Shown: positions 37,330 through 52,816 of the stretch, piece after piece
Layout: each line of letters starts with the position of its first letter
How positions within the stretch are numbered: the stretch's first letter is position 1
Virus record (IMG/VR): IMGVR_UViG_3300046804_004738
Coordinates: 32,001 to 96,000 of that record
Strand: one strand, 5' to 3'
DNA length: 64,000 nucleotides
Source of the DNA: a virus
Made by a program: the position numbers and the translations under genes
Notes under the pieces: model-generated
Seen by the model: only the letters and a program-made list of their open reading frames with translations
What the model was told of the DNA's origin: nothing
Database searches by the model: none

Positions 37330-37330
37330 C

Positions 37331-37790: not shown

Positions 37791-37799
37791 ACATACTTT

Positions 37800-37882
37800 T
37801 GGTGCGCATAGAGGGACTTGAACCCCCACCTCGTAAGACCAGAACCTAAATCTGGCGCGTCTGCCAATTTCGCCATATGCGC
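37800..37882 (-). tRNA. tRNA-Leu(UAG)
   Basis: CCAGA-TT TAG GT-TCTGG, variable arm. Confidence 0.92.
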
Positions 37883-37890
37883 ATTATACT

Positions 37891-37976
37891 TGGTACCCGG
37901 AGCCGGACTCGAACCGGCACGCCCTATCGAGCATTGGATTTTAAGTCCAAGGTGTCTACCATTCCACCACCCGGGC
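37891..37976 (-). tRNA. tRNA-Leu(UAA)
   Basis: TTGGA-CT TAA AA-TCCAA. Confidence 0.93.
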
Positions 37977-37985
37977 ATTAAAACT

Positions 37986-38059
37986 TGGAGCGGGGTAAGA
38001 GAATCGAACTCTCAGCTTTAGCTTGGAAGGCTAAGGTATTGCCATTATACGAACCCCGC
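37986..38059 (-). tRNA. tRNA-Gly(UCC)
   Basis: TTAGC-CT TCC AA-GCTAA. Confidence 0.93.
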
Positions 38060-38062
38060 ATT

Positions 38063-38139
38063 TGGTGCCTCCGACAGGACTCGAACCTGTAACCAACGGA
38101 TTATGAGTCCGCTGCTCTGACCAATTGAGCTACAGAGGC
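38063..38139 (-). tRNA. tRNA-CAU (Ile2 or elongator Met)
   Basis: GCGGA-CT CAT AA-TCCGT. Confidence 0.88.
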
Positions 38140-38147
38140 AATTTAAC

Positions 38148-38202
38148 TTTTTAAAGAACAATTCAATCTTTGTACTATACTGCCTAATGCTTTTACTGTC
38201 AA
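38148..38202 (-). promoter_or_regulatory. Sigma70 promoter plus rrn-type boxA
   Basis: TTGACA-17-TATAGT then TGTTCTTTAAAAA. Confidence 0.75.
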
Positions 38203-38205
38203 CTG

Positions 38206-38430
38206 TTAAACAAAGTCATCTGACCCAAAATACTCTGTTACTTTTTGCCTTGCCTCTTTTCTATTAAGTGCAGGAATCTTTACAGTAGCAATATTATTTT
38301 TTATTTTAATGTTAAAAGGCACTATGCCATTTGGCAACCAATTATCTTCAACACGAACCTTAACAGTAAACTCCTTAAGGCGCATTAGTCTTTCAATTAC
38401 TTGTTGCGTAAGATCGGATGGGTTTGACAT
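38206..38430 (-). CDS. Hypothetical protein
   Basis: Start reassigned outside tRNA-Thr. Confidence 0.6.
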   Translation of the reverse strand: MSNPSDLTQQVIERLMRLKEFTVKVRVEDNWLPNGIVPFNIKIKNNIATVKIPALNRKEARQKVTEYFGSDDFV

Positions 38431-38442
38431 AATTAAATTAAT

Positions 38443-38517
38443 TGGTGCTGGCAGTAGGAATCGAACCCACAACCTACGGATTACAAATCCGTTGCTCTAC
38501 CGTTGAGCCATGCCAGC
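38443..38517 (-). tRNA. tRNA-Thr(UGU)
   Basis: ACGGA-TT TGT AA-TCCGT. Confidence 0.93.
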
Positions 38518-38527
38518 GTATTCTGTA

Positions 38528-38689
38528 TTACTTATTCCTACTTGCTATTGCTCGTTCAATTTTACCTTTGTGCTTTGGTCTACAAGTTTCTAGCATTTTG
38601 GTAAGTTGTTCTACATTAAGAGGTCCTAATCTAATCTTACCTGTTTTTGTTTTCATTGGATCACGTTTTGAATCTTTTTTTACACTCAT
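38528..38689 (-). CDS. Small basic protein (53 aa, not in ORF track)
   Basis: GAGGA RBS; MSVKKDSKRDPMKTKTGKIRLGPLN... Confidence 0.65.
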   Translation of the reverse strand: MSVKKDSKRDPMKTKTGKIRLGPLNVEQLTKMLETCRPKHKGKIERAIASRNK

Positions 38690-38708
38690 ACAATCCTCAT
38701 TATAAATT

Positions 38709-38784
38709 TGGCTGTCTAGGTAGGGATCGAACCTACGACAGGGTGATTAACAGTCACCTGCTCTACCGACTGAGCTACTAGACA
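38709..38784 (-). tRNA. tRNA-Asn(GUU)
   Basis: GGTGA-CT GTT AA-TCACC. Confidence 0.93.
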
Positions 38785-38792
38785 ATAAAACT

Positions 38793-38884
38793 TGGCGGAG
38801 CGTATTAGATTCGAACTAATGGTACACATTTCTGTATACGACGGTTTAGCAAACCGCTGCCTTCGACCTCTCGGCCAACGCTCC
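38793..38884 (-). tRNA. tRNA-Ser(GCU)
   Basis: TT GCT AA loop, long variable arm. Confidence 0.92.
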
Positions 38885-38894
38885 TTATAAATAT

Positions 38895-39092
38895 TTACTT
38901 ACTTACAATGTCCTCAACTTTTTTATCAAACTCTAACCGACTAAGCAATAGATTATATACTAAATAAAACATACCTGCAACTAACATTCCACCTAAAACA
39001 TAAACTGGTAGCAAGTTGGCTAATGATGCAGATAGAATACACACAATAAAAAATCCAATTGTTTGTAACAATGCTTTTAATTTTATATTCAT
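38895..39092 (-). CDS. Small membrane protein
   Basis: Two TM helices; early promoter at 39115-39143. Confidence 0.65.
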   Translation of the reverse strand: MNIKLKALLQTIGFFIVCILSASLANLLPVYVLGGMLVAGMFYLVYNLLLSRLEFDKKVEDIVSK

Positions 39093-39158
39093 GATATACC
39101 TTTCACAAAATATAATTATACTACTAATAGGATTTATTGTCAAGTCTTAAAATGTTGT

Positions 39159-40304
39159 CTAAATTTTAACTTTATCCAAAAATCCGTACATACTTTGTAA
39201 TACGGTGTCCCAATCTCCTATTACTGGTTGACGAAATATTCTAGCACTATTATACCAAGGATGCAAGCTAGTATCTAACAAATATCTCCAATCAACAGCA
39301 AAGTTATTCAGTGGAATCCATAATGGTTTTCCCATTGCACCTGCTAAATGTGCGATTGCAGTATCTACACTTATTATTAAGTCTAAATGATACAGTAATC
39401 CTGCTGTATCTCCCCAATGTTTTATACTATTAGGAAACACTCGCAGGGGAGAATTAAGTATATAAGGTGTTTCTTCTTCAGTTGCATCTGCTACTAAATT
39501 AATCCATTCAATATCAGGCCTAGCAAACACTAGAGATAGCATTTTAGATACATGCATTCCTTTGTGTTGATTAATCCAACTATCTTTTCTTCCACTCCAA
39601 CATACACCAACACGCATTTTAGTTTTAGGACCTAATTTTTCACGCCACGGTTCAATATACTTTGGTATCGCTTCAATATATGGTCTGCTGTCTAAATTAT
39701 CAAGTGTAATGTTTAATACCCTTGCGAGAGACATTGTAGTGATGTAATAATCAAAATCAGTTAAATCCTCACGATTGTGAGAGATTTGATATACATATGG
39801 ATTGTTTTCAAACAGTTCAGGCATACCCATGTGTGTATGAAATAAAACTTTACCACCTAATTCATGTATGTTTTTAAAAAAACGAACAAATTGAATTGTA
39901 TCCCCTAACCCTTGTTCCCATAGAACTAATAACTTTTTATTACGTAAGTCTTGTCCTTCCCACATAGGTTTGCCTAACTGTGGCAGTGTGCCTGCAAGAT
40001 GTTCGTATTGCCAACGCCATTCATATTGTTTGAAGCCTCTTTCAAAATCTCCAGCTAACAAATATGCTACACTTAAATTAAATTGGGCGGTTACATAATT
40101 TTCATCTAATGCGACCGCGTGTTGTAAGAAAGGTATCGCACGTTTAGGTTCACCCATTTCACGTAGTACGTTACCATAATTGTTCCATGCATGAATATTT
40201 GTTGGGTCTTTCGTAAAAGCCTGTGCATAACATTCTAAAGCCTTATCAGGCTCTGTGCTATTTCTGTAGTTGTTTCCTATATGTACTAATTCGTCTGATG
40301 TCAT
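39159..40304 (-). CDS. TPR-repeat plus GT9-like glycosyltransferase domain protein
   Basis: N-terminal TPRs; EQGLGD.IQF.RF; LDL.ISVDT..AHLAGAMG; WY. Confidence 0.85.
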   Translation of the reverse strand: MTSDELVHIGNNYRNSTEPDKALECYAQAFTKDPTNIHAWNNYGNVLREMGEPKRAIPFLQHAVALDENYVTAQFNLSVAYLLAGDFERGFKQYEWRWQYEHLAGTLPQLGKPMWEGQDLRNKKLLVLWEQGLGDTIQFVRFFKNIHELGGKVLFHTHMGMPELFENNPYVYQISHNREDLTDFDYYITTMSLARVLNITLDNLDSRPYIEAIPKYIEPWREKLGPKTKMRVGVCWSGRKDSWINQHKGMHVSKMLSLVFARPDIEWINLVADATEEETPYILNSPLRVFPNSIKHWGDTAGLLYHLDLIISVDTAIAHLAGAMGKPLWIPLNNFAVDWRYLLDTSLHPWYNSARIFRQPVIGDWDTVLQSMYGFLDKVKI

Positions 40305-40312
40305 ATTTAATT

Positions 40313-40403
40313 TGGCGGAAGCGGACGGAGTCGAACCCTCAAGGCGCTATTAACGCTCAACTGTTTTCAAGACAGGTACCATCGCCATTTGGTTTGCGCT
40401 TCC
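40313..40403 (-). tRNA. tRNA-Ser(UGA)
   Basis: CTGT-CT TGA AA-ACAG, long variable arm. Confidence 0.9.
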
Positions 40404-40629
40404 TTTTTATAATCATTGCTACATAAGTACCTGCAAATGCACCAAGCAATGCAGGAATTAAAAGGTATAAATCTTTTACAAAACTAACTAAAGCAAAACT
40501 ATAAATTAACATTACAATCGCTGCAAGTGTACTGGCAATTAAAGGTTTATCTTCAGCAATAGCTTTGATATAATAGGTATTTACTATGTCAGTAAAGAAC
40601 ACCGCAAAAAATGTTAGTATATAGTTCAT
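40357..40629 (-). CDS. Small membrane protein (3' end inside tRNA-Ser)
   Basis: Three TM helices. Confidence 0.65.
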   Translation of the reverse strand: MNYILTFFAVFFTDIVNTYYIKAIAEDKPLIASTLAAIVMLIYSFALVSFVKDLYLLIPALLGAFAGTYVAMIIKRKRKPNGDGTCLENS

Positions 40630-40630
40630 A

Positions 40631-40705
40631 TGGTTAGTCCTGCAGGAATCGAACCTGCATCATTGCAATCGGAATGCAGTATCTTATCCATTAGACGAAG
40701 GACTA
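40631..40705 (-). tRNA. tRNA-Arg(CCG)
   Basis: TGCA-TT CCG AT-TGCA. Confidence 0.88.
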
Positions 40706-40920
40706 ATTTCTACTCTTTGTTGGTAGTATGGGTATGCTAGCACAAAATAGACATAATCTTTTTCGTCGTGAAAAAGTATATATCTTGAATTTTCGGACGT
40801 TTCAAATTTACAGTTAGGATGTTGTTCATGCCATTCAAATAATCTTTTTCTATGAAAGCGAACTTTGGCTGTCATAGCAAAATACGGATATGATGTTTCA
40901 CAAATTTCAACTGTAATCAT
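40684..40920 (-). CDS. Hypothetical protein (stop inside tRNA-Arg)
   Basis: F.DEKDY..F.L motif. Confidence 0.55.
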   Translation of the reverse strand: MITVEICETSYPYFAMTAKVRFHRKRLFEWHEQHPNCKFETSENSRYILFHDEKDYVYFVLAYPYYQQRVEISPSSNG

Positions 40921-40924
40921 AAAT

Positions 40925-41000
40925 TGGAGCGGGTGATCAGGTTCGAACTGACGACATTTACCTTGGCAAGGTAACGCTCTACCAACTGAGCTACACCCGC
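40925..41000 (-). tRNA. tRNA-Gly(GCC)
   Basis: TTACC-TT GCC AA-GGTAA. Confidence 0.93.
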
Positions 41001-41008
41001 TTGAAACC

Positions 41009-42919
41009 TTAATTAGTTTCTTTTACTTCTGCATCTACTACTGTAGGATCACCGGGCTTTACTTCAGCATTTGGATCACCATTTGGCATTTCTTTATTGC
41101 GTTTTTCTGCTTCATACTTAATAGTTTCACGATATAGTTCACCTAACTCCTCAGTGGCTTTATCCATATCTTCTTTACTATCGCCTTTAGCAGTTTCTTT
41201 GTGTTTAGTTATTGCATCAACTAGTTTAGTTTTTTCATCTTCAGGAATATATCCTTCAAGATTTGTAATTTGATTTTCTAAATTAGAAATGCTACCATCT
41301 AAACTATTTCTTGCCTGTACAAGTTCAACTATTTTTTTATCTTCTTCTGCATTGGCTTCTGCGTCTTTAACCATACGGTCAATTTCATCTTCGCTTAATC
41401 CAGAATTAGCCTTAATTGTAATTTGTTTTTCTTTATTGGTTTTCTTATCAACTGCCTTTACAGAAAGAATACCATTTGCATCAATATCAAACGTAACTTC
41501 AATTTGTGGCATTCCTCTTGGTGCTGGATCAATGCCTTCTAAATTAAACTCGCCTAATGCCTTGTTACCAACTACAACTTCACGCTCACCTTGGAAAACT
41601 TTAATAGTTACTGCAGGCTGATTATCATCTGCTGTACTGAAAGTTTGGCTTGCCTTAGTAGGAATCGTAGTATTCTTTTTAATCAGCTTACTCATTACTC
41701 CGCCTAATGTTTCAATACCAAGGCTCAATGGTGTAACATCAAGTAACAATACATCTTTACGATCACCACCTAATACCTGACCTTGAATTGCGGCACCAAC
41801 TGCAACTGCTTCATCAGGGTTTACATCTTTACGTGGTGCTTTGCCGAAAAACTTTTCAACAGCTTCTTGCACACGTGGCATACGTGTCATACCACCAACA
41901 AGAATAACTTCATCAATGTCATTTATATTGACACCTGCATCACGCATTGCAATTTCACATGGCTTAATACTACGTTGAATCAAATCTTCAACAAGCCCTT
42001 CAAATTTAGCACGTGTGATTTTAACATTCAAGTGTTTTGGTCCACTTGCATCCGCAGTAATGTATGGCAGACTTACATCTGTCTGTGTAGAACTTGACAA
42101 TTCAATCTTTGCACGTTCTGCCGCATCTTTAAGTCTTTGTAATGCTAATACATCTTTGGTTAAATTAACTCCCGTTTCTTTTTTAAATTCTTCAACAAGG
42201 TAATCCATTATACGTTGATCGAAATCTTCACCACCTAAGAATGTATCGCCGTTGGTTGATAAAACTTCAAATTGTTTGTCACCTTCGACTTCTGCAAGAT
42301 CAATAATAGACACATCAAAAGTACCACCCCCTAAGTCATAGACAGCAACCTTACGGTCCTTCTTGTCCTGTTTATCCACGCCGTATGCTAACGCGGCAGC
42401 TGTGGGTTCGTTAATAATACGCAATACTTCCAGACCGGCAATTTTGCCCGCGTCTTTAGTTGCTTGTCTTTGACTGTCATTAAAATACGCTGGTACTGTG
42501 ATGACTGCTTGTGTAACTTCTTCACCTAAGAAATCTTCAGCGGTCTTTTTCATTTTACGAAGGACTTCAGCACTGATTTGTGGAGGTGCCAATTTCTTAT
42601 CGTTTACCTCTACCCATGCATCACCATTGTCAGCTTTGATGATTTTGTATGGTATTAAATCTATATCTTTTTGAACTGCTTCCTCAGTGAACTTACGACC
42701 AATAAGGCGCTTAGCAGCGTAAATTGTGTTTTTTGGATTAGTAATAGCCTGACGTTTAGCTGGAGCACCTACCATTATTTCACCATCATTTATGTATGCG
42801 ATGATACTTGGGGTAGTTCTTGCACCCTCACTATTTTCTATTACTTTTGGATTTTTGCCATCTATGATAGCAACGCATGAATTTGTGGTACCCAAATCAA
42901 TACCGATAATCTTTGACAT
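41009..42919 (-). CDS. dnaK: Molecular chaperone DnaK (Hsp70)
   Basis: [15 protein letters not shown], full-length Hsp70 motifs. Confidence 0.98.
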
Positions 42920-43023
42920 AATTTTTTCTCCTTTAATAAGCAAGATTACTATCAGTGCCCATTAGGCGCATCTGATATATATATTTATACATGTATTTCC
43001 GAAAAAAAACAACATAACTGGAT

Positions 43024-43710
43024 CTAATCCAAATACCCAAAACCCCAAATGCGTTCTTTGCACCACCAACAACTACCACAATGACGATCATTTACAATAG
43101 TGCTTTCGCAGGATCTTGTGATTTTGTATAAATCTTCTATACCCAATTCTCTATATAGCAAAGCAATTTTTTGTTTGTTTATATTAATAAACGGAACATA
43201 ATAAGATTGTGTAAACTGCGGGTAAGAAAACTCAGTGTCTTGAAAAAAATGCCAAGGTGCTTTGGACAAATCATCATAATATGTATCTAACACAAGTTTG
43301 TGATCTACACCACCTTGTGCGGCAACATTAGTTGTATCAAAATCAGTTATTGCATCGACTGGGGGAGGCCTTGTAAATCCAAAATACACAGTGTCAACTT
43401 TAACTGTTTGCATGTATTCAGCTAACATAACATTATCAGTTGTTTTATGTTTTGTCCAATGTGTGTAGAATCGTAGATTGTTAGGGTCAAATCCTGTCAT
43501 GCCCATAACTTTATTAATTACTTTTAATGCATTAATAGGTTCACGATAATTACTTTTGCCATTGGCAGCTGAAAAAATATGCAAAGGTTGATTAATATTA
43601 GACATCAACATGTACAACATTAAAGCACTATCGGCTCCGCCTGATACAAAAGCTCCTAAGTTGCCATCGTAAATATCAAATGTAAAATCGTTATATTGTA
43701 TGTATTTCAT
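43024..43710 (-). CDS. QueC-like PP-loop ATPase
   Basis: SGGADS; TRSC...CGSCWWC.ER. Confidence 0.7.
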   Translation of the reverse strand: MKYIQYNDFTFDIYDGNLGAFVSGGADSALMLYMLMSNINQPLHIFSAANGKSNYREPINALKVINKVMGMTGFDPNNLRFYTHWTKHKTTDNVMLAEYMQTVKVDTVYFGFTRPPPVDAITDFDTTNVAAQGGVDHKLVLDTYYDDLSKAPWHFFQDTEFSYPQFTQSYYVPFININKQKIALLYRELGIEDLYKITRSCESTIVNDRHCGSCWWCKERIWGFGYLD

Positions 43711-43748
43711 AAAATTATTTAAATAGTAGTGTAACATTTAAGATATTT

Positions 43749-43823
43749 TGGTAGCAGGAGAGGGATTCGAACCCCCGATAGCTTCCGTATGAAGGAAGTG
43801 CATTACCACTTTGCTATCCTGCC
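43749..43823 (-). tRNA. tRNA-Met(CAU), elongator-type
   Basis: CTTCC-TT CAT AC-GGAAG. Confidence 0.88.
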
Positions 43824-43825
43824 AT

Positions 43826-44113
43826 TTAATCTTCGTCTTTATAAAATTTATCCTGTTTTAATTTTTTTTCTTGGATCGTATCTTCTCCAAAAAATTTGCG
43901 GGGATTACCGCACATGTAACACTTTGGATCACCGCAATTAAAAATATTCATTTTTAAATTTCTATGCGGTTGTTTCATATTACGCCAGTTGTGCATTGCA
44001 CTACTTAATTTGTGATATCCATAATTTTTCGCTAGTTGTAGTTGCTTTTTAATTCTATTTTCTTTTTGGTGTAGTCTTTCACTGTGCTTTTTCTTTACAA
44101 CTTCATCTGACAT
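43826..44113 (-). CDS. Basic hypothetical protein with CG.P.C..CGNPR zinc motif
   Basis: GAGGAG RBS. Confidence 0.7.
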   Translation of the reverse strand: MSDEVVKKKHSERLHQKENRIKKQLQLAKNYGYHKLSSAMHNWRNMKQPHRNLKMNIFNCGDPKCYMCGNPRKFFGEDTIQEKKLKQDKFYKDED

Positions 44114-44128
44114 AATTACTCCTCTTAT

Positions 44129-44206
44129 TGGTGGAGAGTCTAGGAATCGAACCTAGTTCAACGGCTCTTCAAACCGTCGCTGAATGACCACACTAGCTCA
44201 CTCTCC
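44129..44206 (-). tRNA. tRNA-Phe(GAA), atypical D-arm
   Basis: ACGGT-TT GAA GA-GCCGT. Confidence 0.82.
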
Positions 44207-44226
44207 TATATATTTAAGTTTTTTTA

Positions 44227-44838
44227 TTAAGGTTTTTTATAAATTACAATTTTATGATTTGGCAATGGATAATCATATTCCACTAAGTTTTGAAATTTAC
44301 TGTTTAAATACTTAAAAATGTCAAAATGATCATCAAACCATATTACACTTTTATCTTCACGCCAATCACCTGGCACCAATCTTTGTTTAAAATTATTAAG
44401 ACAAACCAAATATCCGTTCAATTTTAAACTATTGTAAATATTTTCAATTTCTTCAATAGGATTTTCAACATGTTGTAAAACAAATGATGCTATACATACA
44501 TCAAAAACTTTAGTGTATGTTACTTTATTACATGTAACAAAATTTTTAGGATTATTTACGTACTGAGTGGCATAGACTAGCATGTTAAGACTAATATCAG
44601 TACCGACAATTTTACAATTGAAATCATCAATAAGTTCTTTACTTACTCTTCCCATACCAACACCAAAATCTAAAACAATGCTACTTTCATTTATTAGATT
44701 TTCTTTTTTTATAACGTCAACAAAATATTTTGTTGCTTCCGTAAACCTATTAGGATCATTATCATCTGGTGTTAAAACAATATCTTTTGCATGTTCTAAA
44801 CTTATAGGATCAAAAATTGCAGATTGATAACCTTTCAT
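44227..44838 (-). CDS. Class I SAM-dependent methyltransferase
   Basis: VLDFGVGMGR, VLQHV, LK.NG. Confidence 0.85.
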   Translation of the reverse strand: MKGYQSAIFDPISLEHAKDIVLTPDDNDPNRFTEATKYFVDVIKKENLINESSIVLDFGVGMGRVSKELIDDFNCKIVGTDISLNMLVYATQYVNNPKNFVTCNKVTYTKVFDVCIASFVLQHVENPIEEIENIYNSLKLNGYLVCLNNFKQRLVPGDWREDKSVIWFDDHFDIFKYLNSKFQNLVEYDYPLPNHKIVIYKKP

Positions 44839-44853
44839 ACTTTATTTATCCTT

Positions 44854-44930
44854 TGGGGTGAAGGATGGGACTCGAACCCACGACCAACGGAATCACAATC
44901 CGCGACTCTACCAACTGAGCTACCATCACC
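44854..44930 (-). tRNA. tRNA-His(GUG)
   Basis: GCGGA-TT GTG AT-TCCGT, G-1. Confidence 0.92.
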
Positions 44931-44935
44931 ATAGA

Positions 44936-45115
44936 CTATTCTGCACGCCATTCAACACGACCATGTTGGTCAATATGTGCTATACTCTGCATACGTTTAA
45001 TCTCAACATAATCTCGTTTTTCAGTAATGATTGTTCCGCCTCGTTTTACAAGCTCATCAATCTTAATTAGTGCAACACTGCTAATTGGCATAAATTTTTT
45101 AAATGTGTACTCCAT
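44936..45115 (-). CDS. Hypothetical protein
   Basis: AAGGAG RBS; start reassigned to MEYTF. Confidence 0.65.
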   Translation of the reverse strand: MEYTFKKFMPISSVALIKIDELVKRGGTIITEKRDYVEIKRMQSIAHIDQHGRVEWRAE

Positions 45116-45133
45116 TTTATATCTCCTTGTAAC

Positions 45134-45210
45134 TGGTACCCCAGGAAGGATTCGAACCTCCGACTCCTGCGTTCGTAGCACAGTACTCTAGTCCACTGAG
45201 TTACTGGGGC
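45134..45210 (-). tRNA. tRNA-Arg(ACG)
   Basis: CTGTG-CT ACG AA-CGCAG. Confidence 0.9.
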
Positions 45211-46310
45211 ATAAATTTTATTTCTTTTGTATTAGCATTAGTTAGTCGCTGACCTTGCCACCACCCTTTTTTCCATCCATCACGTAAAATTGCTTGAAGT
45301 AAAAAAGTACCAAATGTATGAGGTATGAATTGAGCATAAGGTCCCATATACATGTAACTCGTATCTAATGACTTTGCAGTTGCCCAGTGTATTATCTGTA
45401 TGATAATATTATTGTCTAGTACAACACCGATATGGTATGGATTACTTCCTATGTTTGAATGTTTTCCAAACGACAGTCCTAATTCATTTGCAACTTCTGT
45501 TAACCAATCATATATTTCACTAGCAAAAATTTCTTTATCTTGTTCAAACGGAATACCAATTTGCGAGGGTGATCTTACACAAAAATTATATGGCAATCTT
45601 CCCTGAGACTTTAACCAAATCATCTTTTCAACAGCATATCTTACTTGCTGTTTTGATTCTACTGTAAAGCTTAATTGTGCAATCATTATACTTGATTCTG
45701 CAATATTTTGCAAGGCTTGGTCAACTTTTTTCCATACTGCTGCATTATGATACTCTGGATTGTGTATACTCATGCTTATCAAATTTAAACCAGAATCAAC
45801 TAGTGATTGTAAATATTCTTTATCTCTAATTTTTAGACCATTAGTATACATCATGACTTTTGTTTTCGGAACAGCAGCTGGTCTATTACAAATTTCTTTA
45901 ATAATATATGGTAAATCTTTTCGCATCGTAGGCTCTGCTCCCATAAAGCATACTGTTGATGTAGGTACAGCTAATGCTCTTGCGATGATTAACTCTGCTG
46001 GCAAATCCTCAATTTCGTTATCAGGCGAGTGATAACAATGTTTGCATTGTACATTACACCTATCAGTAACTTCAATAATAGTAATATCATTGTAGGCGTT
46101 CCAAGTGTCATTAGTTGGATCAGTTTGTAACGCAGTATCCCAAAACTTATAATCTCTTTCTACCATTGCCTCTTCATATCCATGAGTAGGACAAGTTTTA
46201 ACAATATAGGCAGAGCCATCATCTCGGTATTCAATTGTTGCAGGCAATTCCATGTAGCACGTACCGCATAATCCACGTGTTGTATAACTGTTTATCATTG
46301 ATTTCTCCAT
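45201..46310 (-). CDS. Radical SAM protein with Tes/MJ0619-like N-terminal metal-binding domain
   Basis: LCGTC..ELPATI...KTCPTHG; IEVTDRCNVQCKHCY; GAEPTMRKDL; TNG. Confidence 0.85.
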   Translation of the reverse strand: MEKSMINSYTTRGLCGTCYMELPATIEYRDDGSAYIVKTCPTHGYEEAMVERDYKFWDTALQTDPTNDTWNAYNDITIIEVTDRCNVQCKHCYHSPDNEIEDLPAELIIARALAVPTSTVCFMGAEPTMRKDLPYIIKEICNRPAAVPKTKVMMYTNGLKIRDKEYLQSLVDSGLNLISMSIHNPEYHNAAVWKKVDQALQNIAESSIMIAQLSFTVESKQQVRYAVEKMIWLKSQGRLPYNFCVRSPSQIGIPFEQDKEIFASEIYDWLTEVANELGLSFGKHSNIGSNPYHIGVVLDNNIIIQIIHWATAKSLDTSYMYMGPYAQFIPHTFGTFLLQAILRDGWKKGWWQGQRLTNANTKEIKFMPQ

Positions 46311-46352
46311 TGAAGTAATATTTATATTATAAATATAACCTTACTTAACAAT

Positions 46353-46430
46353 TGGCTGGGGACCTAGGATTCGAACCTAGGAATGCCGGAATCAAAATCC
46401 GGTGCCTTAGACCAACTTGGCGAGTCCCCA
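46353..46430 (-). tRNA. tRNA-Gln(UUG)
   Basis: CCGGA-TT TTG AT-TCCGG. Confidence 0.93.
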
Positions 46431-46431
46431 A

Positions 46432-46581
46432 TTAACTTGCTATAATCTTCGGAAGATATGGCACATTCCTAGGACCATGTCTTTGTTCAAAAAGCATACG
46501 TGCTTCTTGTAAATCTTTTGCATACACCCTATCTTTTATTTCACCTTGAGGTGTTCTTACTGTAGTTTCAAACATTGGCAT
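46432..46581 (-). CDS. Small hypothetical protein
   Basis: GGAGAG RBS; MPMFETTVRTP... Confidence 0.6.
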   Translation of the reverse strand: MPMFETTVRTPQGEIKDRVYAKDLQEARMLFEQRHGPRNVPYLPKIIAS

Positions 46582-46600
46582 AACAAACTCTCCAGAGGTA

Positions 46601-46625
46601 AGAAAAGGTAGCAACGCTACCCTTT
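46601..46625 (-). terminator. Terminator downstream of pqqA
   Basis: GGTAGC-GTT-GCTACC-TTTT. Confidence 0.7.
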
Positions 46626-46654
46626 CACGCTACATGTAAATTGTAAATCAGCTA

Positions 46655-46726
46655 TTAGCGATTTGCAATGTACATGGTGATTTCAAATCCAAAACGCATA
46701 TCAGTTGCACTTGGTGTTGTCCACAT
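46655..46726 (-). CDS. pqqA: PQQ precursor peptide PqqA (23 aa, not in ORF track)
   Basis: MWTTPSATDMRFGFEITMYIANR with E-x3-Y core; GAGGAG RBS. Confidence 0.93.
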   Translation of the reverse strand: MWTTPSATDMRFGFEITMYIANR

Positions 46727-46847
46727 GTTACTCTCCTCTATTTAAAATATACATGTACTGCACATGTATTTAAGAGAGTATACAACACAAAAATGGTACT
46801 GAATATACGCAATGTAATGAACGATAGCTAGTTAAAATCATTAAAAT

Positions 46848-46936
46848 TACCATATAGAAACACATTCCTGGACTCTCGTAACAGCAGTCCATAGCCCCGG
46901 GCGCCATTATGTGTTTGAATGTGTTTTTATATGGTA
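46848..46936 (-). other. Long hairpin element abutting tRNA-Lys CCA
   Basis: 20-bp arms TACCATATAGAAACACATTC / GAATGTGTTTTTATATGGTA. Confidence 0.7.
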
Positions 46937-47007
46937 GGGGCACCAGGGATCGAACCTGGGACACATAGATTAAAAGTCTACTGCTCTGCCAACTGAGCTA
47001 TACCCCC
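46932..47007 (-). tRNA. tRNA-Lys(UUU)
   Basis: GTAGA-CT TTT AA-TCTAT. Confidence 0.93.
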
Positions 47008-47034
47008 ATCATCTTTCGAGGTTTGTCACTTTCC

Positions 47035-47202
47035 TTATTCATCTTTTTCACCTTTATTTTTCATACTTCTTGCCTTAGCATTTCTTTCTGAGGATCTAAC
47101 AGCCTCACGAATAAAATGTCTACCGCGTTCTTTGTCGAAACAAAGGATAGCGATTGCCTTTTCTGCTTTTTTAATCTTTACTGCTCTTGCATCGTAACCC
47201 AT
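47035..47202 (-). CDS. Small basic hypothetical protein
   Basis: GGGAG RBS; MGYDARAVKI. Confidence 0.6.
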   Translation of the reverse strand: MGYDARAVKIKKAEKAIAILCFDKERGRHFIREAVRSSERNAKARSMKNKGEKDE

Positions 47203-47290
47203 ATTATACTCCCTATTTAAAATTTCTGTCAATTAAAACTAGTAACCAAATAACTCCTATACACACTGCCATTGCCCCATTGTAGTTCTC

Positions 47291-47479
47291 CTATTTGTTG
47301 ATTGAGGTTGAGAATTTCTCTGACTCAATTTCTAGTTGATCTGTTTTATCATTCATATTCTTAATGTCACTGACAATAGACGCTACAGTAGCCTTTTCAT
47401 TTCTTAATTTGGCAAATTCAGCTTCATATTTTGCAAGAAGGTCTGAATTAACATGTTTACGAATCCAATCAGTAGTCAT
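47291..47479 (-). CDS. Hypothetical protein
   Basis: TATAAATA upstream. Confidence 0.55.
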   Translation of the reverse strand: MTTDWIRKHVNSDLLAKYEAEFAKLRNEKATVASIVSDIKNMNDKTDQLEIESEKFSTSINK

Positions 47480-47494
47480 TCAATATTTATAATT

Positions 47495-47579
47495 TGGTGG
47501 GGATGGAAGGATTCGCACCTACTCACCCGAAGGAACGGATTTACAGTCCGCCGCCGCTCTCTAACTCAGCCGCATCCCC
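47495..47579 (-). tRNA. tRNA-Tyr(GUA), atypical T- and D-loops
   Basis: GCGGA-CT GTA AA-TCCGT; T-loop GTGCGAAT. Confidence 0.85.
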
Positions 47580-47581
47580 AT

Positions 47582-47786
47582 TAGGTGCTTCCTCTCTGCG
47601 GCGGTAATTATACTGCATCAAGCACCAAGTAGTCCTAGCACCATCACACACAGCCTCCACCCGCTCCCCGACCAGAGAGGATTCTCGTATAGCCAACGCA
47701 CTTTCGGTTAAAAGTGTACCACCCGTAGCTATCACACTACTTCTCATCGTGCGGGTCACACTATCTGTTGATTAGACAGAACGTTC
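47582..47786 (-). ncRNA. Candidate structured ncRNA (~200 nt) between tRNA-Asp and tRNA-Tyr
   Basis: Several helices, including CCTCTCTG/CAGAGAGG and a G-U-rich hairpin that pairs on the minus strand only. Confidence 0.6.
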
Positions 47787-47863
47787 TGGCGACACCAAGG
47801 GGGTTCGAACCCCTGACCTCCGCCGTGACAGGGCGGCGTTCTGACCAGCTGAACTATGGTGCC
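47787..47863 (-). tRNA. tRNA-Asp(GUC)
   Basis: CCGCC-CT GTC AC-GGCGG. Confidence 0.93.
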
Positions 47864-48029
47864 AATGTTCTACACTCTGCTACTAACTTACTTTTTACAA
47901 TTGTTAATCTTTTATTCCAAACATACTCACTATCTCTACATTCTTTTTCTGTAGCATATTTTGAGTATTGAGTATAGTTGTCAGGAAACTGTAGCCAAAA
48001 TACTAATATCCATGTCATACAATTTCCCC

Positions 48030-48154
48030 TATATTAGTTTTGTAGCCTGCACTATATGCCTAACTCAACAGCTTTACACGTGATTACTGTTTATTGTTTC
48101 GGTTACATAACGCCTGCGCCTGCCTCTGTGCTTACAGGCTACAAAACTAATATA
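48030..48154. repeat. Perfect 20-bp inverted repeat enclosing 85 nt
   Basis: TATATTAGTTTTGTAGCCTG / CAGGCTACAAAACTAATATA. Confidence 0.85.
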
Positions 48155-48157
48155 AAA

Positions 48158-48256
48158 CATATTGAAACACACTAGGGGATTCGAACCGCCTCACTGTCGG
48201 CATCGGACAGCATTACCACCCGTCGTGCGCCCTTCGGCTTAGTGTGCTTCATTATG
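48158..48256 (-). other. Hairpin element enclosing a degenerate tRNA-like sequence, abutting tRNA-Ile CCA
   Basis: 17-bp arms; internal GGTTCGAATCC. Confidence 0.65.
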
Positions 48257-48331
48257 GTGCCTGTTCCTGGACTTGAACCAGGGACTCCCACCTTATCAAG
48301 ATGGTACTCTGACCAACTGAGTTAAACAGGC
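48255..48331 (-). tRNA. tRNA-Ile(GAU)
   Basis: CCATC-TT GAT AA-GGTGG. Confidence 0.92.
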
Positions 48332-48335
48332 AATT

Positions 48336-48411
48336 TGGCACACCCAACCGGATTCGAACCGGTGTTGCTACCGTGAAAGGGTAAAGTCCTAGGCCTCTAG
48401 ACGATGGGTGC
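48336..48411 (-). tRNA. tRNA-Glu(UUC)
   Basis: TACC-CT TTC AC-GGTA. Confidence 0.92.
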
Positions 48412-48423
48412 ATAAAACTTAAA

Positions 48424-48479
48424 TTGTTAAAGAATCAAAAATAATCAGACATTGTATCTCGTTTTGGATTTAATGTCAA
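48424..48479 (-). promoter_or_regulatory. Sigma70 promoter plus rrn-type boxA
   Basis: TTGACA-17-TACAAT then GATTCTTTAACAA. Confidence 0.75.
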
Positions 48480-48483
48480 CTAT

Positions 48484-48840
48484 TTAAAGTGTTACCCAGA
48501 AGAAACCGTTCCAGCATTCTACTTTATCGGTATCTTCATTGTATCTGATCTCATTGATGTTAAGTGTTTGTGGGATAGAATCTTTTTCTTTTAGGTAACG
48601 CATATGTGCAGTTTTTGAATTATGTATTTCATACATTTTCTTATTTACTTTTACAGTATAAAGATTTTTGCCCATAAGTGTACAACCTCGGCCCCAGATG
48701 CATAGACCGCTACCATATTCGTCCACAACTACTTTCATAACTCTCCCGCGTTCGTGACCTGATCTGGGAAATTTTTGATGATAAACAAAATGATATCCCT
48801 GTTTCATTAAATTATCAATTTGTGCAAGTGTCATCTTCAT
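48484..48840 (-). CDS. Hypothetical protein
   Basis: Start reassigned outside tRNA-Ala; promoter near 48870-48899. Confidence 0.6.
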   Translation of the reverse strand: MKMTLAQIDNLMKQGYHFVYHQKFPRSGHERGRVMKVVVDEYGSGLCIWGRGCTLMGKNLYTVKVNKKMYEIHNSKTAHMRYLKEKDSIPQTLNINEIRYNEDTDKVECWNGFFWVTL

Positions 48841-48904
48841 GACTAATGACCTATCAATAAAGAAATATGAAGTATAGCACCGAAATGATTTAATGTCAAA
48901 TGTT

Positions 48905-48980
48905 TGGTGGAGGTGACAGGGATCGAACCCGCGACCTACGGCTTGCAAAGCCGCCGCTCTCCCAACTGAGCTACACCCCC
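48905..48980 (-). tRNA. tRNA-Ala(UGC)
   Basis: GCGGC-TT TGC AA-GCCGT; G3-U70. Confidence 0.93.
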
Positions 48981-48984
48981 AAAC

Positions 48985-49059
48985 TGGTCCGGCTGCCAGG
49001 AATCGAACCTGGATCAGAGGCTTAGAAGGCCACTGTACTATCCATTGTACTACAGCCAG
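48985..49059 (-). tRNA. tRNA-Arg(UCU)
   Basis: GGC-CT TCT AA-GCC. Confidence 0.88.
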
Positions 49060-49098
49060 ATAATGCAGAGTATATCAATACTCTGCATTTTTGTCAAC

Positions 49099-49659
49099 CT
49101 AAGACTGTAGAATCCTACTATGCTTCGGCACCCCACTTATCAAGTATTCCATTTGGTCAGCTAGAATGTTTCTATTTTGCAAAATCATACTTTCAAAGTG
49201 ATTTGGTTCATAAGGCACATAAAGTAATTCCATTCTTGCTTCCTTTAGTGTCTTATTATCTTTTTTGTTATTGCAACTAGTACATGCAGTAACAACATTC
49301 ATCCAAATGTTTACGCCACCTCTGCTTTTAGGCAGAATGTGATCACGGCTCAAATGACTACTATTACTGAAATGTCCACCACAATATGCGCAAACATGAC
49401 GATCACGACCAAACAATGTTTTGTTTGTTAATGCAACTTTGCCGTGTCTGCTAGGATCAAAACCATGTCCCTTGATAGCAATAATACTAGGCGTTTCAAT
49501 GTAACTCATGCGTCCATCATTTTGGACACCACCACGAAACTTAGCTACTACTTCACCTAGCGACCATGCAACCATATCTTTCGCATGATATGTAATTGCA
49601 TTTTCGTGCGAGATCCACTGTCTAGGGATTCCGCCGATATCTAACGCTAGAACCGACAT
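49099..49659 (-). CDS. HNH endonuclease (McrA/HNH_5-like)
   Basis: RD...CAYCG...DHILPKSRGG...W.N.VTAC..CN..K. Confidence 0.9.
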   Translation of the reverse strand: MSVLALDIGGIPRQWISHENAITYHAKDMVAWSLGEVVAKFRGGVQNDGRMSYIETPSIIAIKGHGFDPSRHGKVALTNKTLFGRDRHVCAYCGGHFSNSSHLSRDHILPKSRGGVNIWMNVVTACTSCNNKKDNKTLKEARMELLYVPYEPNHFESMILQNRNILADQMEYLISGVPKHSRILQS

Positions 49660-49711
49660 GATACTCTCCTTATAAGTTTAATGTATTTAGACACTCTAAA
49701 ATTTAAAGTGT

Positions 49712-49885
49712 ATGATAAAGCAAACTAGTACCGCCTTATCGGTGCGATTCATATTATTAAGCTAATTTGCTTTATCATTCCCGTTTTACTATGCTGTTAC
49801 CGCCAGCGTTTTCATCAGGGGCTCCGCCCGTTTACGGCATGTTTTAAGTGCGCCGTTGAGACCTCGTTTCTCTCACACCTAAACG
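49712..49885 (-). ncRNA. Candidate structured RNA or leader upstream of the HNH gene
   Basis: GC-rich hairpins (GAGA/TCTC, ACGGC/GCCGT, GGGC/GCCC, GCTG/CAGC) plus a 17-bp stem at 49712-49778. Confidence 0.45.
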
Positions 49886-49887
49886 TG

Positions 49888-50037
49888 TTAAGATTCTAAC
49901 ACGTTATCATCTTTATTGTCAACCTTTTCAGTAAAACCATAGAATTCTCTAATTCTTTCAAACTTTTCAGTTATCAATTTATTAAGTTGTTCATCTGATA
50001 ATATATGGTTGTCAATAGTATCTTTTTGATAATTCAC
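49888..50037 (-). CDS. Small hypothetical protein (49 aa) immediately downstream of the attenuator
   Basis: GTG start after GGAG/GAAAG. Confidence 0.45.
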   Translation of the reverse strand: MNYQKDTIDNHILSDEQLNKLITEKFERIREFYGFTEKVDNKDDNVLES

Positions 50038-50053
50038 CTTTCGTTCTCCATAT

Positions 50054-50092
50054 AAAGTAAAAAACCCTGGGACTTTTTGAGTACCAGGGTTT
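50054..50092 (-). terminator. Attenuator terminator hairpin
   Basis: AAACCCTGG...CCAGGGTTT followed by TTTACTTT. Confidence 0.85.
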
Positions 50093-50112
50093 AGATAATC
50101 TTACTATGAAAC

Positions 50113-50238
50113 TTACTTACCTAAACCCCCACAGCCCTCAATAATATTACGGTCACTTGTTAAGGCATAAAACCCTACAGGTAGCCATGCCAATATCATT
50201 GACTGTTTTCTGGTTATATGCGTACAAAAGTTTTTCAT
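50113..50238 (-). CDS. Putative attenuator leader peptide (41 aa) containing all 20 amino acids
   Basis: MKNFCTHITRKQSMILAWLPVGFYALTSDRNIIEGCGGLGK*; last codons form the antiterminator strand. Confidence 0.7.
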   Translation of the reverse strand: MKNFCTHITRKQSMILAWLPVGFYALTSDRNIIEGCGGLGK

Positions 50239-50267
50239 AGTAATTCTATTTAGTCCTGTAATTTAAA

Positions 50268-50296
50268 AGTATACTTTTTATAGTAAAAAATGTCAA
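50268..50296 (-). promoter_or_regulatory. Sigma70 promoter for the leader/attenuator
   Basis: TTGACA-17-TATACT. Confidence 0.8.
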
Positions 50297-50298
50297 TA

Positions 50299-50799
50299 TT
50301 ATATTTGCCCACTAATTTGTTTCAATTCTTTTAACATTTTTGTAACCGAACCTACTATATTTAAATCATCCTCTGAAATAAACTGTATTATATCTTTATC
50401 ATCAACAATACACAATACTCTTGTTAACCTATCCTCAGTAAAAGCTAGGTCTAGTTTGTTTGCTAAACTTACATGAGGCTGTGGATTATCAGTAAAAATA
50501 TACAAGCTTGGGGTACCTGCTTTCTGACTTATAATACTCCAAGCTGCATCAGCAAAACCTCTATCTGTAGAGCCAATAAATAGAATAATTCCGTTCTTTG
50601 CTAATAATTGAGATATATTGTGGAAACCTATTAATTCTTCAGGATGTACATATGTAAAATTATTTGGATAAAAAACAAAAATTTTCCATACGCCCTCAAA
50701 GGTTTTTTCATTCACTAGTTTTCTAGCATTAGAATTGGACTCATTTGGTTTAGTGCAATTGATTGCATATGGTCCTACGACATCACCTGTATTTTTCAT
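50299..50799 (-). CDS. Degenerate AhpC/peroxiredoxin-like protein
   Basis: FYPNNFTYVHPEE vs canonical FYP.DFTFVCPTE; GSTD; R. Confidence 0.65.
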   Translation of the reverse strand: MKNTGDVVGPYAINCTKPNESNSNARKLVNEKTFEGVWKIFVFYPNNFTYVHPEELIGFHNISQLLAKNGIILFIGSTDRGFADAAWSIISQKAGTPSLYIFTDNPQPHVSLANKLDLAFTEDRLTRVLCIVDDKDIIQFISEDDLNIVGSVTKMLKELKQISGQI

Positions 50800-50807
50800 A
50801 AAAGTAT

Positions 50808-50990
50808 TTATTCAGATATTTTTCCCCAGTTCAGTTTTAACCACGCACGTTCATGTATGTAATGAGCGATTGTCATGAAGATATTAATTACAATTGCTCC
50901 GCTCAGTCCTGTCCAAATTGCTGTAACTAATGTTGCTACTATTCTCCATGTTATTGCTCTTATAATTGTTCTTTTGTGCGTTTCGGTCAT
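50808..50990 (-). CDS. DUF2061-like membrane protein
   Basis: ET.KRT..RA.TWR...Y.HERAW..L.WG. Confidence 0.8.
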   Translation of the reverse strand: MTETHKRTIIRAITWRIVATLVTAIWTGLSGAIVINIFMTIAHYIHERAWLKLNWGKISE

Positions 50991-51382
50991 TTTGTTAATA
51001 TTCCTAATTGTCTATATCCACGATATGTTGGATGTACCTTATCCGGTGATAGTTCTGGTATAATAATAAATGTATCGCCATAATGCCTAGCAATTTTTTT
51101 TACTATTTCTTGTTTTTCTGGTTTAATGGCAGGAACTATCCAAAATATTTGATCTGAATTTACGAAACTTCTTAGGGCAACAAGTTCTATTTCAGTGTTT
51201 AGATTTTTAAAATCATTACTACCTAAACTAATAATTGTAGTTTTAGCAGGTTTAATTTTCTTAACGTAGGAATCATTCCAATCACGACTATTAATACCGC
51301 TTTGAGCATAAGCTACACATTCTGTACGAATTTGGCTTATTCCTTTTGCTATACTATCACCAAGAATAAGGCACTCTATCAT
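50987..51382 (-). CDS. SGNH/GDSL hydrolase-like protein
   Basis: GDS, G, GSND, D.VHP. Confidence 0.8.
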   Translation of the reverse strand: MIECLILGDSIAKGISQIRTECVAYAQSGINSRDWNDSYVKKIKPAKTTIISLGSNDFKNLNTEIELVALRSFVNSDQIFWIVPAIKPEKQEIVKKIARHYGDTFIIIPELSPDKVHPTYRGYRQLGILTK

Positions 51383-51810
51383 TGTTCGGACAAATATTTG
51401 TCTAGGGCTTTTTGATAACGATTCGCATGTGATCTTTCTGCTTTTGCTAAAGTTTCAAACCAATCAGCAATTTCATCAAACCCTTCATCACGTGCAGTTT
51501 TTGCCATACCTGGATACATGTCAGAATACTCATGTGTCTCACCTGCAATTGCTGCTTCTAACATTTGTCGTGCAGACTTTGCTGGCATATCGGTACCAGG
51601 TTCACCTGCCCCACCTTCAATTAAATATTCCATATGACCATGTGCGTGACCAGTCTCACCTTCAGCAGTAGAGCGGAATAGTGCAGCAAGATCATTTTCA
51701 CCCGCAATGTCGCATTGATTTGCAAAATATAGATAACGTCGGTTTGCCATTGATTCTCCTGCAAATGCTTCTTTTAAACATAATGCTGTTTTAGATCCTT
51801 TGATATTCAT
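51379..51810 (-). CDS. Rubrerythrin (ferritin-like domain only)
   Basis: AFAGES.ANRRY, E..HA.GH, GETHEY..MYP, AE..HA. Confidence 0.92.
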   Translation of the reverse strand: MNIKGSKTALCLKEAFAGESMANRRYLYFANQCDIAGENDLAALFRSTAEGETGHAHGHMEYLIEGGAGEPGTDMPAKSARQMLEAAIAGETHEYSDMYPGMAKTARDEGFDEIADWFETLAKAERSHANRYQKALDKYLSEQ

Positions 51811-51904
51811 ACATTCTCCTTTGATAAAAATACTGTATATTATAATCTAGGTATTTATATTTTTGAAATTGTTTGGGAAAAATAGTATACATGTAAATAG
51901 TATT

Positions 51905-52816
51905 ATGAACACTTTTGTATTAAATCCAAACGTTTACGATGTGGTATTTCTTAGTTATGACGAACCAAACGCAGACGAAAACTATGGACATCTGTTATCA
52001 ATTAAACCAAAAGCCAAAAGAATACATGGGGTAAAGGGTAGTGATGCTGCGCATAAAGCGGTTGCAGAAATAACAAAAACTGATAGAGTCATTATAATTG
52101 ACGGTGATAACAAAATTAATCCAAACTTTTTTGGTAATAATGTTTACACAAAACCACACTTTGACTGGACTGATTATGTTTTTAGCTGGAGCAGCTACAA
52201 CCCAACAAATGGAAATTGTTACGGTAATGGCGGTATTAAATGTTGGCCAGTTCACCTACTTAAAGAAATGCGTACTCATGAGGTAGGTGATAGTGTTGAC
52301 TTCCAATTAGATAAATATCTTGAATTAAATAAAATAGGAAGTGACACAATAATAAATGCTAGTCCATTACAAGCTTTTCGTGCAGGATTTCGTGATGGCA
52401 TGAAACTATTAGAGAGTGGTGACAAAGATTTTGAAAAGTTAGATTGGCGAAACCGCGAAAGACTTTATAATTGGATGCACATAGGTAGTGATGTAAAATT
52501 TGGGTTATGGGCAATATATGGTGCAAGATTGGGTGCATTCATGTTATTACGCGGGCATGACATAAAAATATTAAATGACTTTGACAAAATAAATGAAGTG
52601 TTTGAAACATATAGTGGTATTGCAAATGTAAATTTAATGGAAGAATGCAATAAGATAGGTAGAACTTTTATTAGCAAGTATGTACATGATGTACTATTCC
52701 CTGATCAAAGTATAGAAGTAAAGGCAAATTATGAGCCTCCAATTCGTAGTGCAGAAGAATTCTTAGCAGGTAAAACAAAGGAAGATATTGACAAATTTTA
52801 TGCAAGTCCCGTTTGA
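51905..52816 (+). CDS. Glycosyltransferase-like (DxD) phage protein
   Basis: FLSYDEPNA, G.D.AH, IDGD, YGNGG.K, AFRAGFR. Confidence 0.65.
   Translation: MNTFVLNPNVYDVVFLSYDEPNADENYGHLLSIKPKAKRIHGVKGSDAAHKAVAEITKTDRVIIIDGDNKINPNFFGNNVYTKPHFDWTDYVFSWSSYNPTNGNCYGNGGIKCWPVHLLKEMRTHEVGDSVDFQLDKYLELNKIGSDTIINASPLQAFRAGFRDGMKLLESGDKDFEKLDWRNRERLYNWMHIGSDVKFGLWAIYGARLGAFMLLRGHDIKILNDFDKINEVFETYSGIANVNLMEECNKIGRTFISKYVHDVLFPDQSIEVKANYEPPIRSAEEFLAGKTKEDIDKFYASPV

Follow-up and report, generated by a model that had tools for sequence, protein, structure and literature searches.

An All-20-Amino-Acid Leader Reading Frame Forms a Candidate Ribosome-Dependent Attenuator Ahead of tRNA Arrays in Large Uncultured Phages

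Here we describe a candidate transcription attenuator at the head of a transfer RNA (tRNA) array in a stretch of viral DNA of 64,000 nucleotides (nt), referred to as the window, which comprises positions 32001-96000 of the 106-kb IMG/VR viral contig IMGVR_UViG_3300046804_004738. Since the estimated completeness of the 106-kb contig is only 30%, its source, which is uncultured and of freshwater origin, is a large phage. The element is composed of a promoter, a leader open reading frame (ORF) of 41 codons which contains all 20 amino acids, and an intrinsic terminator, one arm of which has an alternative partner at the end of the ORF; all of these, as well as the tRNA array downstream, lie on the minus strand of the window. 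This architecture is conserved in diverged relatives, and so is its linkage to a tRNA array. It probably represents a ribosome-dependent leader-peptide attenuator whose all-20-amino-acid ORF would gauge overall decoding capacity, a reading first proposed in an original prediction made from the sequence alone and now supported by comparative evidence.

Results

Layout of the Leader and Its Alternative Hairpins

The original prediction had named a promoter, a 41-codon ORF with all 20 amino acids, a terminator and an alternative helix, and both the coordinates and the sequences of all four proved correct. The features of the locus are listed in the order of transcription.

50268-50296, minus strand: promoter TTGACA-17-TATACT, with 11 of 12 consensus matches; TATAAT in close relatives
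50236-50258, minus strand: conserved 5' leader with start region, CAGGACTAAATAGAATTACTATG, found once in the window, with the AUG at 50238-50236
50113-50238, minus strand: leader ORF, 41 codons and stop, all 20 amino acids
50116-50130, minus strand: segment 2, the 5' strand of the antiterminator, GGGGGTTTAGGTAAG, formed by the final codons of the ORF, whose stop is at 50115-50113
50100-50119, minus strand: stretch complementary to the start-codon region, TAAGTAAGTTTCATAGTAAG, in the loop that separates segments 2 and 3; forms a long-range helix with the AUG region
50085-50100, minus strand: segment 3, the 3' strand of the antiterminator, GATTATCTAAACCCTG, overlapping the 5' arm of the terminator
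50059-50092, minus strand: intrinsic terminator, hairpin AAACCCTGGTAC...GTCCCAGGGTTT followed by a U-tract
49888-50037, minus strand: conserved ORF of 49-50 amino acids (aa), first gene past the terminator, with a GGAG ribosome-binding site
49099-49659, minus strand: gene for an HNH endonuclease, which in the clade of the window separates the leader from the first tRNA
36398-49059, minus strand: array of 27 tRNA genes serving all 20 amino acids, with protein genes and internal promoters in between

The leader ORF begins 30 nt after the -10 hexamer and, as the prediction had read it, reaches all 20 amino acids by codon 34 while using 32 different codons. Stop codons of all three frames are found within or beside segment 2. 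Complementarity between GGGTTTAGGTAA (50128-50117) and TTATCTAAACCC (50098-50087), the 12-bp pairing with one G-U which the prediction had pointed out, was confirmed, and the latter strand overlaps the 5' arm of the terminator hairpin AAACCCTGG...CCAGGGTTT, which occupies 50092-50062 and is followed by a T-run to 50059. The alternative helix measures 12-13 bp. The 27-tRNA array was likewise found on the same strand, between 49059 and 36398.

Retention of All 20 Amino Acids in Diverged Leaders

The sequence conservation and distribution of the element were analyzed by a scan of IMG/VR for GGACTAAATANANTTACTATG, the motif conserved at the 5' leader and start, an anchor which is blind to the composition of the ORF. 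The scan recovered 25 further loci, in which the distant leaders are 44-59 codons long and fall into six more groups. Together with metagenome contigs this gave 26 distinct leader peptides, which share only 14-60% identity between groups, and 24 of these 26 contain all 20 amino acids. The original prediction had asked whether the ORF, its 20-amino-acid composition and the hairpins persist among relatives while the peptide sequence drifts, and this is the pattern observed. A null model in which the family-conserved columns were kept fixed and all other positions were redrawn from the family's own pool gave a probability of 0.6-18% per representative for holding all 20 amino acids, with a product over ten representatives of about 10^-13 which is too small because the groups are related; by our own arithmetic, a figure of about 3 x 10^-7 would result even from five independent lineages, each with a probability of 5%. 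In two leaders a rare residue has moved: tryptophan is gone from the conserved "LW" site of locus L124 and is present instead in "IEWG", while L134 has no N-terminal cysteine and carries one in "FACTYP". The sole lineage with 19 amino acids, consisting of L141 and L144 (both without cysteine), is also the sole lineage without a U-tract, having an intact hairpin followed by GGGTTAACC (L141 4161-4400, L144 1-240). The attenuator may be decaying in this lineage, a single event in the expected direction.

The frame is open in all 26 variants, and in the 24 complete elements it runs for 40-59 codons from the AUG to segment 2 or beyond. The other two frames of these 24 elements carry two to six stops (averages 4.6 and 3.8), and a random frame of this composition would stay open over 41 codons with a probability of 3-5%. 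These figures indicate that the ORF is kept open by selection, which argues for its translation. On the evidence of these comparisons, both the open frame and the 20-amino-acid composition are under selection.

The chance estimate that had been suggested for the window's own ORF gave all 20 amino acids in 0.4% of the 41-codon windows in this phage's long ORFs. No amino-acid runs and no enrichment in one to three amino acids are found in the leaders, with all 20 residues mostly occurring once or twice. Under strict wobble rules the leader ORF engages 24 of the 26 tRNA species of the phage, compared with a mean of 16.6 and a maximum of 23 species in 12,239 gene windows, and Markov nulls drawn from the element's own (dinucleotide) composition over random open frames gave a probability of 2.5-5 x 10^-4 for at least 24 species. 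The 106-kb contig has 431 small ATG ORFs, of which the leader ties for the highest species count and is the shortest of the three which reach 24 species.

Relatives within the clade of the window were collected with three anchors, namely the AhpC-like gene upstream, 20 nt from the core of the leader ORF, and the 49-aa ORF downstream, which yielded ten distinct nucleotide variants to which a protein search added further peptides. All of these variants have an open frame of 40-42 codons and all 20 amino acids; their leaders use 31-33 different codons and engage 23-25 of the 26 tRNA species. The mean number of species was 24.1 versus 23.5 (P = 0.0014), a figure inflated by relatedness. The promoter is retained across the close clade, and the core of the start region is identical in every one of its variants; the sequences upstream of the other groups differ. 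The 3' end of the ORF switches reading frame among close variants with the nucleotides of segment 2 retained. A profile search with the close-clade peptides returned close relatives only, and when the locus and two distant relatives were compared by blastn with 50,697 phage records, no match and hence no cultured relative was obtained.

Conservation of the Terminator and Antiterminator

In the window the duplex of segments 2 and 3 has a folding energy of -17.8 kcal/mol versus -10.1 +/- 1.9 after dinucleotide shuffling of the 160 nt upstream; four of 2000 shuffles reach the observed energy. The same duplex is found in all 24 complete elements at -11 to -18 kcal/mol, comparable to the terminator of each, and its energy was reached by 0-22 of 300 shuffles per element. 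Segment 3 overlaps the 5' arm of the terminator in every element, and its partner strand lies at the end of the ORF. The paired sequences themselves are group-specific, being GGGUUUAGGUAA/UUAUCUAAACCC in group A (the clade of the window), GGGGAGUUUCAUA/UAUGAAACCCC in group B and CCGGGGAUUAAGUAAAC/GUUUAUUUAGGCCCUG in L130, whose near relative L126 has changed on both strands. Double compensatory changes were absent within the close clade. The stop codon lies within segment 2 or 1-3 nt past it in group A, overlaps segment 2 in groups C to F, and falls in the loop of group B, 16-35 nt past segment 2 and before segment 3.

Across the elements the terminator hairpin has a predicted energy of -15 to -20 kcal/mol and, outside the lineage of L141 and L144, is followed by a U-tract. 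An alignment of 22 sequences showed 98.9% of the cells of its stem to be paired, with compensatory changes at two pairs (A-U/C-G in seven sequences, U-A/C-G in three) and a covariation score reached by none of 500 shuffles. As local hairpins, the antiterminator (-14 to -17.5 kcal/mol) and the terminator (-15 to -17 kcal/mol) of close relatives are about equally stable.

A further helix is formed between the start-codon region and the stretch that separates segments 2 and 3 (inside segment 2 in group B). This helix covaries, in that AUGAAA is matched by UUUCAU and, in peptides which begin with "MM", AUGAUGA by UCAUCAU; its position is conserved and its significance in individual sequences is weak to moderate. 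Judged from these pairings, it may serve as an anti-antiterminator when the start site is free of ribosomes.

Association With tRNA Arrays

A co-directional tRNA array follows the leader in every locus with enough flanking sequence. It starts about 1 kb past the terminator in the clade of the window, behind the 49-aa ORF and the HNH gene, and 250-1100 nt past it in the others; in many of these other groups the first tRNA is located 250-500 nt after the terminator, a gap which leaves no room for an HNH gene, so that the array, and not the endonuclease, is the constant partner of the leader. The 49-aa ORF has no promoter of its own, and its product has no family match and is modeled by AlphaFold 2 as one helix with a mean predicted local distance difference test (pLDDT) score of 65.5. 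Between 35,500 and 51,000 the only strong terminators on this strand are that of the leader and one just past the last tRNA, and because of the position of the latter the array may be one long transcription unit with internal promoters. A terminator candidate at 43894 was discounted as it lies inside a 95-aa ORF.

Other features on the same strand are as follows.

45201-46310, minus strand: radical SAM protein with HMPTM-type zinc ribbon, among the tRNA genes
44227-44838, minus strand: methyltransferase gene, among the tRNA genes
43024-43737, minus strand: QueC-like protein gene, among the tRNA genes
41009-42943, minus strand: Hsp70/DnaK gene, among the tRNA genes
39159-40304, minus strand: TPR protein gene, among the tRNA genes
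36559-36870, minus strand: parvulin-type prolyl isomerase gene, among the tRNA genes
35782-35810 (approximate), minus strand: the other strong terminator, AATAGACCCTTAGGGGTCTATT and T-run, just past the last tRNA

The presence of Hsp70 and a prolyl isomerase in the array suggests a wider module for protein-synthesis capacity. A palindrome, TGCAGAGTAT-TGAT-ATACTCTGCA (49069-49097, minus strand), covers the -10 region of the promoter before the tRNA-Arg gene and might function as an operator or as a hairpin for processing. A GC-rich structured stretch (49764-49890, minus strand; fold z-score -2.86) without Rfam match separates the 49-aa ORF from the HNH gene. In metagenome contigs it is found with unrelated flanks and at high depth, and so occurs in other contexts as well. 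Downstream of the L144 leader there is a similar motif (AACGAGG...GCAC...AAACGGGCGGA), and a blastn match to the stretch is present in L136. The hammerhead-like CUGAUGA/GAAAC within this stretch was set aside for want of Rfam support.

Two arrays of group B, those of L122 (1311-1383) and L133 (8492-8564), contain a tRNA with anticodon UUA, which reads UAA; the leaders of group B, these two included, end in UAA, and their next in-frame stop lies in segment 3. Stop suppression could thus alter the switch of group B. A tRNA with anticodon CUA, which reads UAG, is present in L126 (1454-1528), about 4 kb upstream of the leader.

Seven relatives share 80-95% identity over the module from the promoter to the HNH gene (window 49350-50320) but only 50-70% in the adjacent AhpC/TSA-like gene (window 50330-50800). 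This contrast fits spread or preferred inheritance of the module via the HNH homing endonuclease, and inheritance of tRNA regions driven by a homing endonuclease has been reported for SegB of phage T4 (discussed in PMC8421152). Relatives of the HNH protein in Ralstonia phage RsoM2USA and Salicola phage SCTP-2 have no tRNA genes annotated within 6 kb, and were uninformative.

Discussion

Proposed Mode of Action

The promoter would yield a short RNA in which the 41-codon ORF ends inside segment 2 of the antiterminator. A lead ribosome keeping pace with RNA polymerase would be at the stop codon, on or beside segment 2, at the time segment 3 emerges, and with the stop codon in its A site it would cover segment 2 and most of the loop. 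This masking geometry assumes a ribosome footprint of the usual size. Segment 3 would then pair with the 3' arm of the terminator and the polymerase would stop at the U-tract. If instead the ribosome lags, its A site being no further along than about codon 33, segment 2 would be free to capture segment 3. Transcription would then continue, in this clade through the 49-aa ORF and the HNH gene to the tRNA array, and elsewhere directly into the first tRNA. To arrive at the stop codon the ribosome must have decoded every one of the 20 amino acids, and it could therefore be held back when any charged tRNA runs short. That the leader is translated, and the direction and the size of its response, we infer from the sequences.

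The broader proposal is that phages with a near-complete tRNA set gauge the whole decoding capacity of the cell via one leader, with feedback on the transcription of the tRNA and chaperone module; judged from the same comparisons we consider this evenly balanced. The leader could also report the cleavage of tRNAs by host anticodon nucleases, and phage tRNAs have been linked to escape from host defences which target tRNAs (PMC10264068, PMC10802454).

Several findings weigh against an attenuator that reads every charged tRNA. The array contains near-consensus promoters at 49922, 49097, 48899, 48479 and 47232, and in L137, which has no strong promoter between the terminator and the first tRNA, a promoter with 12 of 12 consensus matches follows that tRNA; L126 has a site with 10 of 12 matches before its first tRNA. 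The internal promoters mean that the array does not depend on read-through and that control by the attenuator is at best partial, a caveat which the original prediction had already raised and which is borne out here. Comparison with shuffles revealed no significant conserved upstream partner of segment 2 that would correspond to the trp-like 1:2 helix. Conservation of the start region is by construction, as the distant groups were found through it. Within the close clade the coding signal is weak, with a ratio of nonsynonymous to synonymous polymorphism (pN/pS) of 0.59 versus 1.73 and 0.75 in the other frames, and the persistence of all 20 amino acids is explained by conserved singletons, with no significant compensation for amino-acid loss (column permutation P = 0.5).

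Nor does the start codon have a Shine-Dalgarno sequence at a functional distance, the nearest being an AGGA 15 nt upstream of the AUG. The prediction had listed a weak ribosome-binding site as a caveat, the force of which is softened by two observations: 62 of the 90 long ORFs of the contig likewise have no 4-nt Shine-Dalgarno motif before their first ATG (possibly not the true start), and in L140 (86-511) an ORF of 136 aa without known family is headed by this same 21-nt motif, GGACTAAATAGAATTACTATG, of leader and start. This motif may be a general translation start region of these phages. In nascent transcripts the start region is mostly unpaired. Two metatranscriptome libraries contain small parts of the locus as Logan contigs, in which missing cover of the 5' half is uninformative, and the sole contig from an RNA library that spans the terminator (360 nt, 49803-50164) is possibly carry-over of DNA.

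Alternative Explanations

It is unlikely, though more plausible than the other alternatives, that the attenuator reads the general status of translation (ribosome availability, host shut-off, toxins or antibiotics) or a peptide-specific arrest rather than every charged tRNA. Such a device would have an architecture identical to that of the charged-tRNA sensor, and known ribosome-mediated attenuators do respond to translation inhibitors. Two further findings lean the same way and count against a charged-tRNA sensor. The peptide motif N..C..K.H..LW...Y.TSIRG is retained across groups, which leaves room for a sequence-specific role of the peptide, and the leaders are not tailored to the tRNA repertoire of their own phage, a possibility which was rejected as they cover their own set (0.87) hardly better than the sets of other phages (0.86). 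These near-equal values indicate that breadth has been selected with no match to a particular repertoire. A reader of general status leaves unexplained, however, why all 20 amino acids are retained in 24 of 26 diverged peptides with relocation of tryptophan and cysteine, and why the element keeps its constant position ahead of a tRNA array.

We consider it improbable that the ORF encodes a trans-acting small protein of 40-59 aa or the precursor of a modified peptide, with the hairpin as the leaky ordinary terminator of a highly expressed gene. The conserved ORF with its common motif, its recognition by gene callers in metagenomes, the radical SAM genes nearby and the precedent of trans-acting leader peptides in Sinorhizobium (PMC7298713) would all suit such a product. 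The leader peptide, however, matches no Pfam, NCBIfam or PHROG family, and AlphaFold 2 models it as a single low-confidence helix with a mean pLDDT of 60.7. Its C-terminus changes frame among close relatives with the nucleotides kept and its rare residues change position, and a protein product would not account for the fixed position of the stop codon nor for a conserved, covarying helix that excludes the terminator. Two specific products were rejected, a type I toxin for lack of a hydrophobic stretch of transmembrane length, and a ribosomally synthesized and post-translationally modified peptide for lack of a family match and of an operon with a maturase.

Least probable of all is that the product is the RNA of about 200 nt itself, either a small RNA or a leader which binds a protein or a ligand, and that the open frame is incidental: the transcript does form a rod which the AUG-containing helix closes and whose fold is better than that of shuffles (z = -2.99), this helix is kept through wobble-compatible changes and released attenuator RNAs can act as small RNAs (PMC6614838), but an incidental frame would not be open in all variants against two to six stops elsewhere, nor have an amino-acid composition under selection, and the interior of the rod is not conserved, its alifold consensus shifting between alignments of four and nine sequences and its predicted pairs being broken by a hypervariable triplet, which is codon 20 in the aligned ORFs and codon 19 in the ORF of the window. 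A scan of 36000-52000 with Rfam 15 found only tRNAs, with no match on 50054-50296 at E <= 1.

Comparison With Known Systems

Why phages carry tRNA genes, and how these are regulated, is an old open question. If the attenuator reading is true, the leader would be a built-in demand sensor which raises transcription of tRNA genes when decoding is slow, and a textbook mechanism would be carried over to genes of a new class, its scope widening from a single amino acid to the full 20; a compact gauge of how fast translation runs in general could moreover serve as a tool. The original prediction had called a general tRNA-pool sensor undescribed as far as it knew, and our full-text searches, which combined phage tRNA genes with attenuators or leader peptides, returned nothing relevant and no published account.

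T-box riboswitches also read the charging of tRNA through a terminator/antiterminator switch, but they bind one uncharged tRNA directly and without translation. The antiterminator of the phage element is an uninterrupted helix without the T-box bulge, and the element has no match to a T-box model.

The nearest biology we found in print is that of the long trn operon of Anabaena sp. PCC 7120, which stays silent under standard culture conditions and is switched on by translational stress (PMC8421152), under control of the repressor TrcR (PMC10272220). In common with the phage loci it is an accessory array of about 26 tRNAs which is expressed when translation is impaired, and homing endonuclease genes accompany such arrays. 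It differs in being controlled by a transcriptional repressor and in being cellular and not viral; the words leader, attenuat- and terminator are absent from both of these papers.

Attenuators which sense inhibitors ahead of resistance genes share the principle that a stall in the leader ORF, of whatever cause, switches the terminator off, and they are likewise general reporters of slowed translation; they differ in having short leaders with drug-specific arrest motifs. No inhibitor-sensing leader is known to contain all 20 amino acids or to be placed ahead of tRNA genes. An example of such a system is the attenuator of Bacillus subtilis which depends on tylosin-induced ribosome stalling (PMC6851288).

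A parallel in architecture is found in the enterobacterial leaders trpL, hisL, pheL and leuL, the multivalent thrL and the ilvGMEDA leader. These have the same combination of a short leader ORF, a terminator and an antiterminator which shares a strand with it, and the same placement of the stop codon, at which the terminating ribosome masks the antiterminator; the likeness implies no sequence homology. Their codons match what is supplied downstream, as here 23-25 of the 26 tRNA species of the array are sampled by the leader. Unlike the enterobacterial leaders, the phage leader has no runs of one to three amino acids, is long (40-59 codons), precedes tRNAs and not biosynthetic enzymes, is borne by a phage, and has no significant 1:2 helix, its start-codon region pairing instead with the loop of the antiterminator. 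By analogy, the logic of the phage element is that of leader-peptide attenuation as known from the trp, his, thr and ilv operons, and what is new is its apparent target, the tRNA genes, and a leader that calls for all 20 amino acids.

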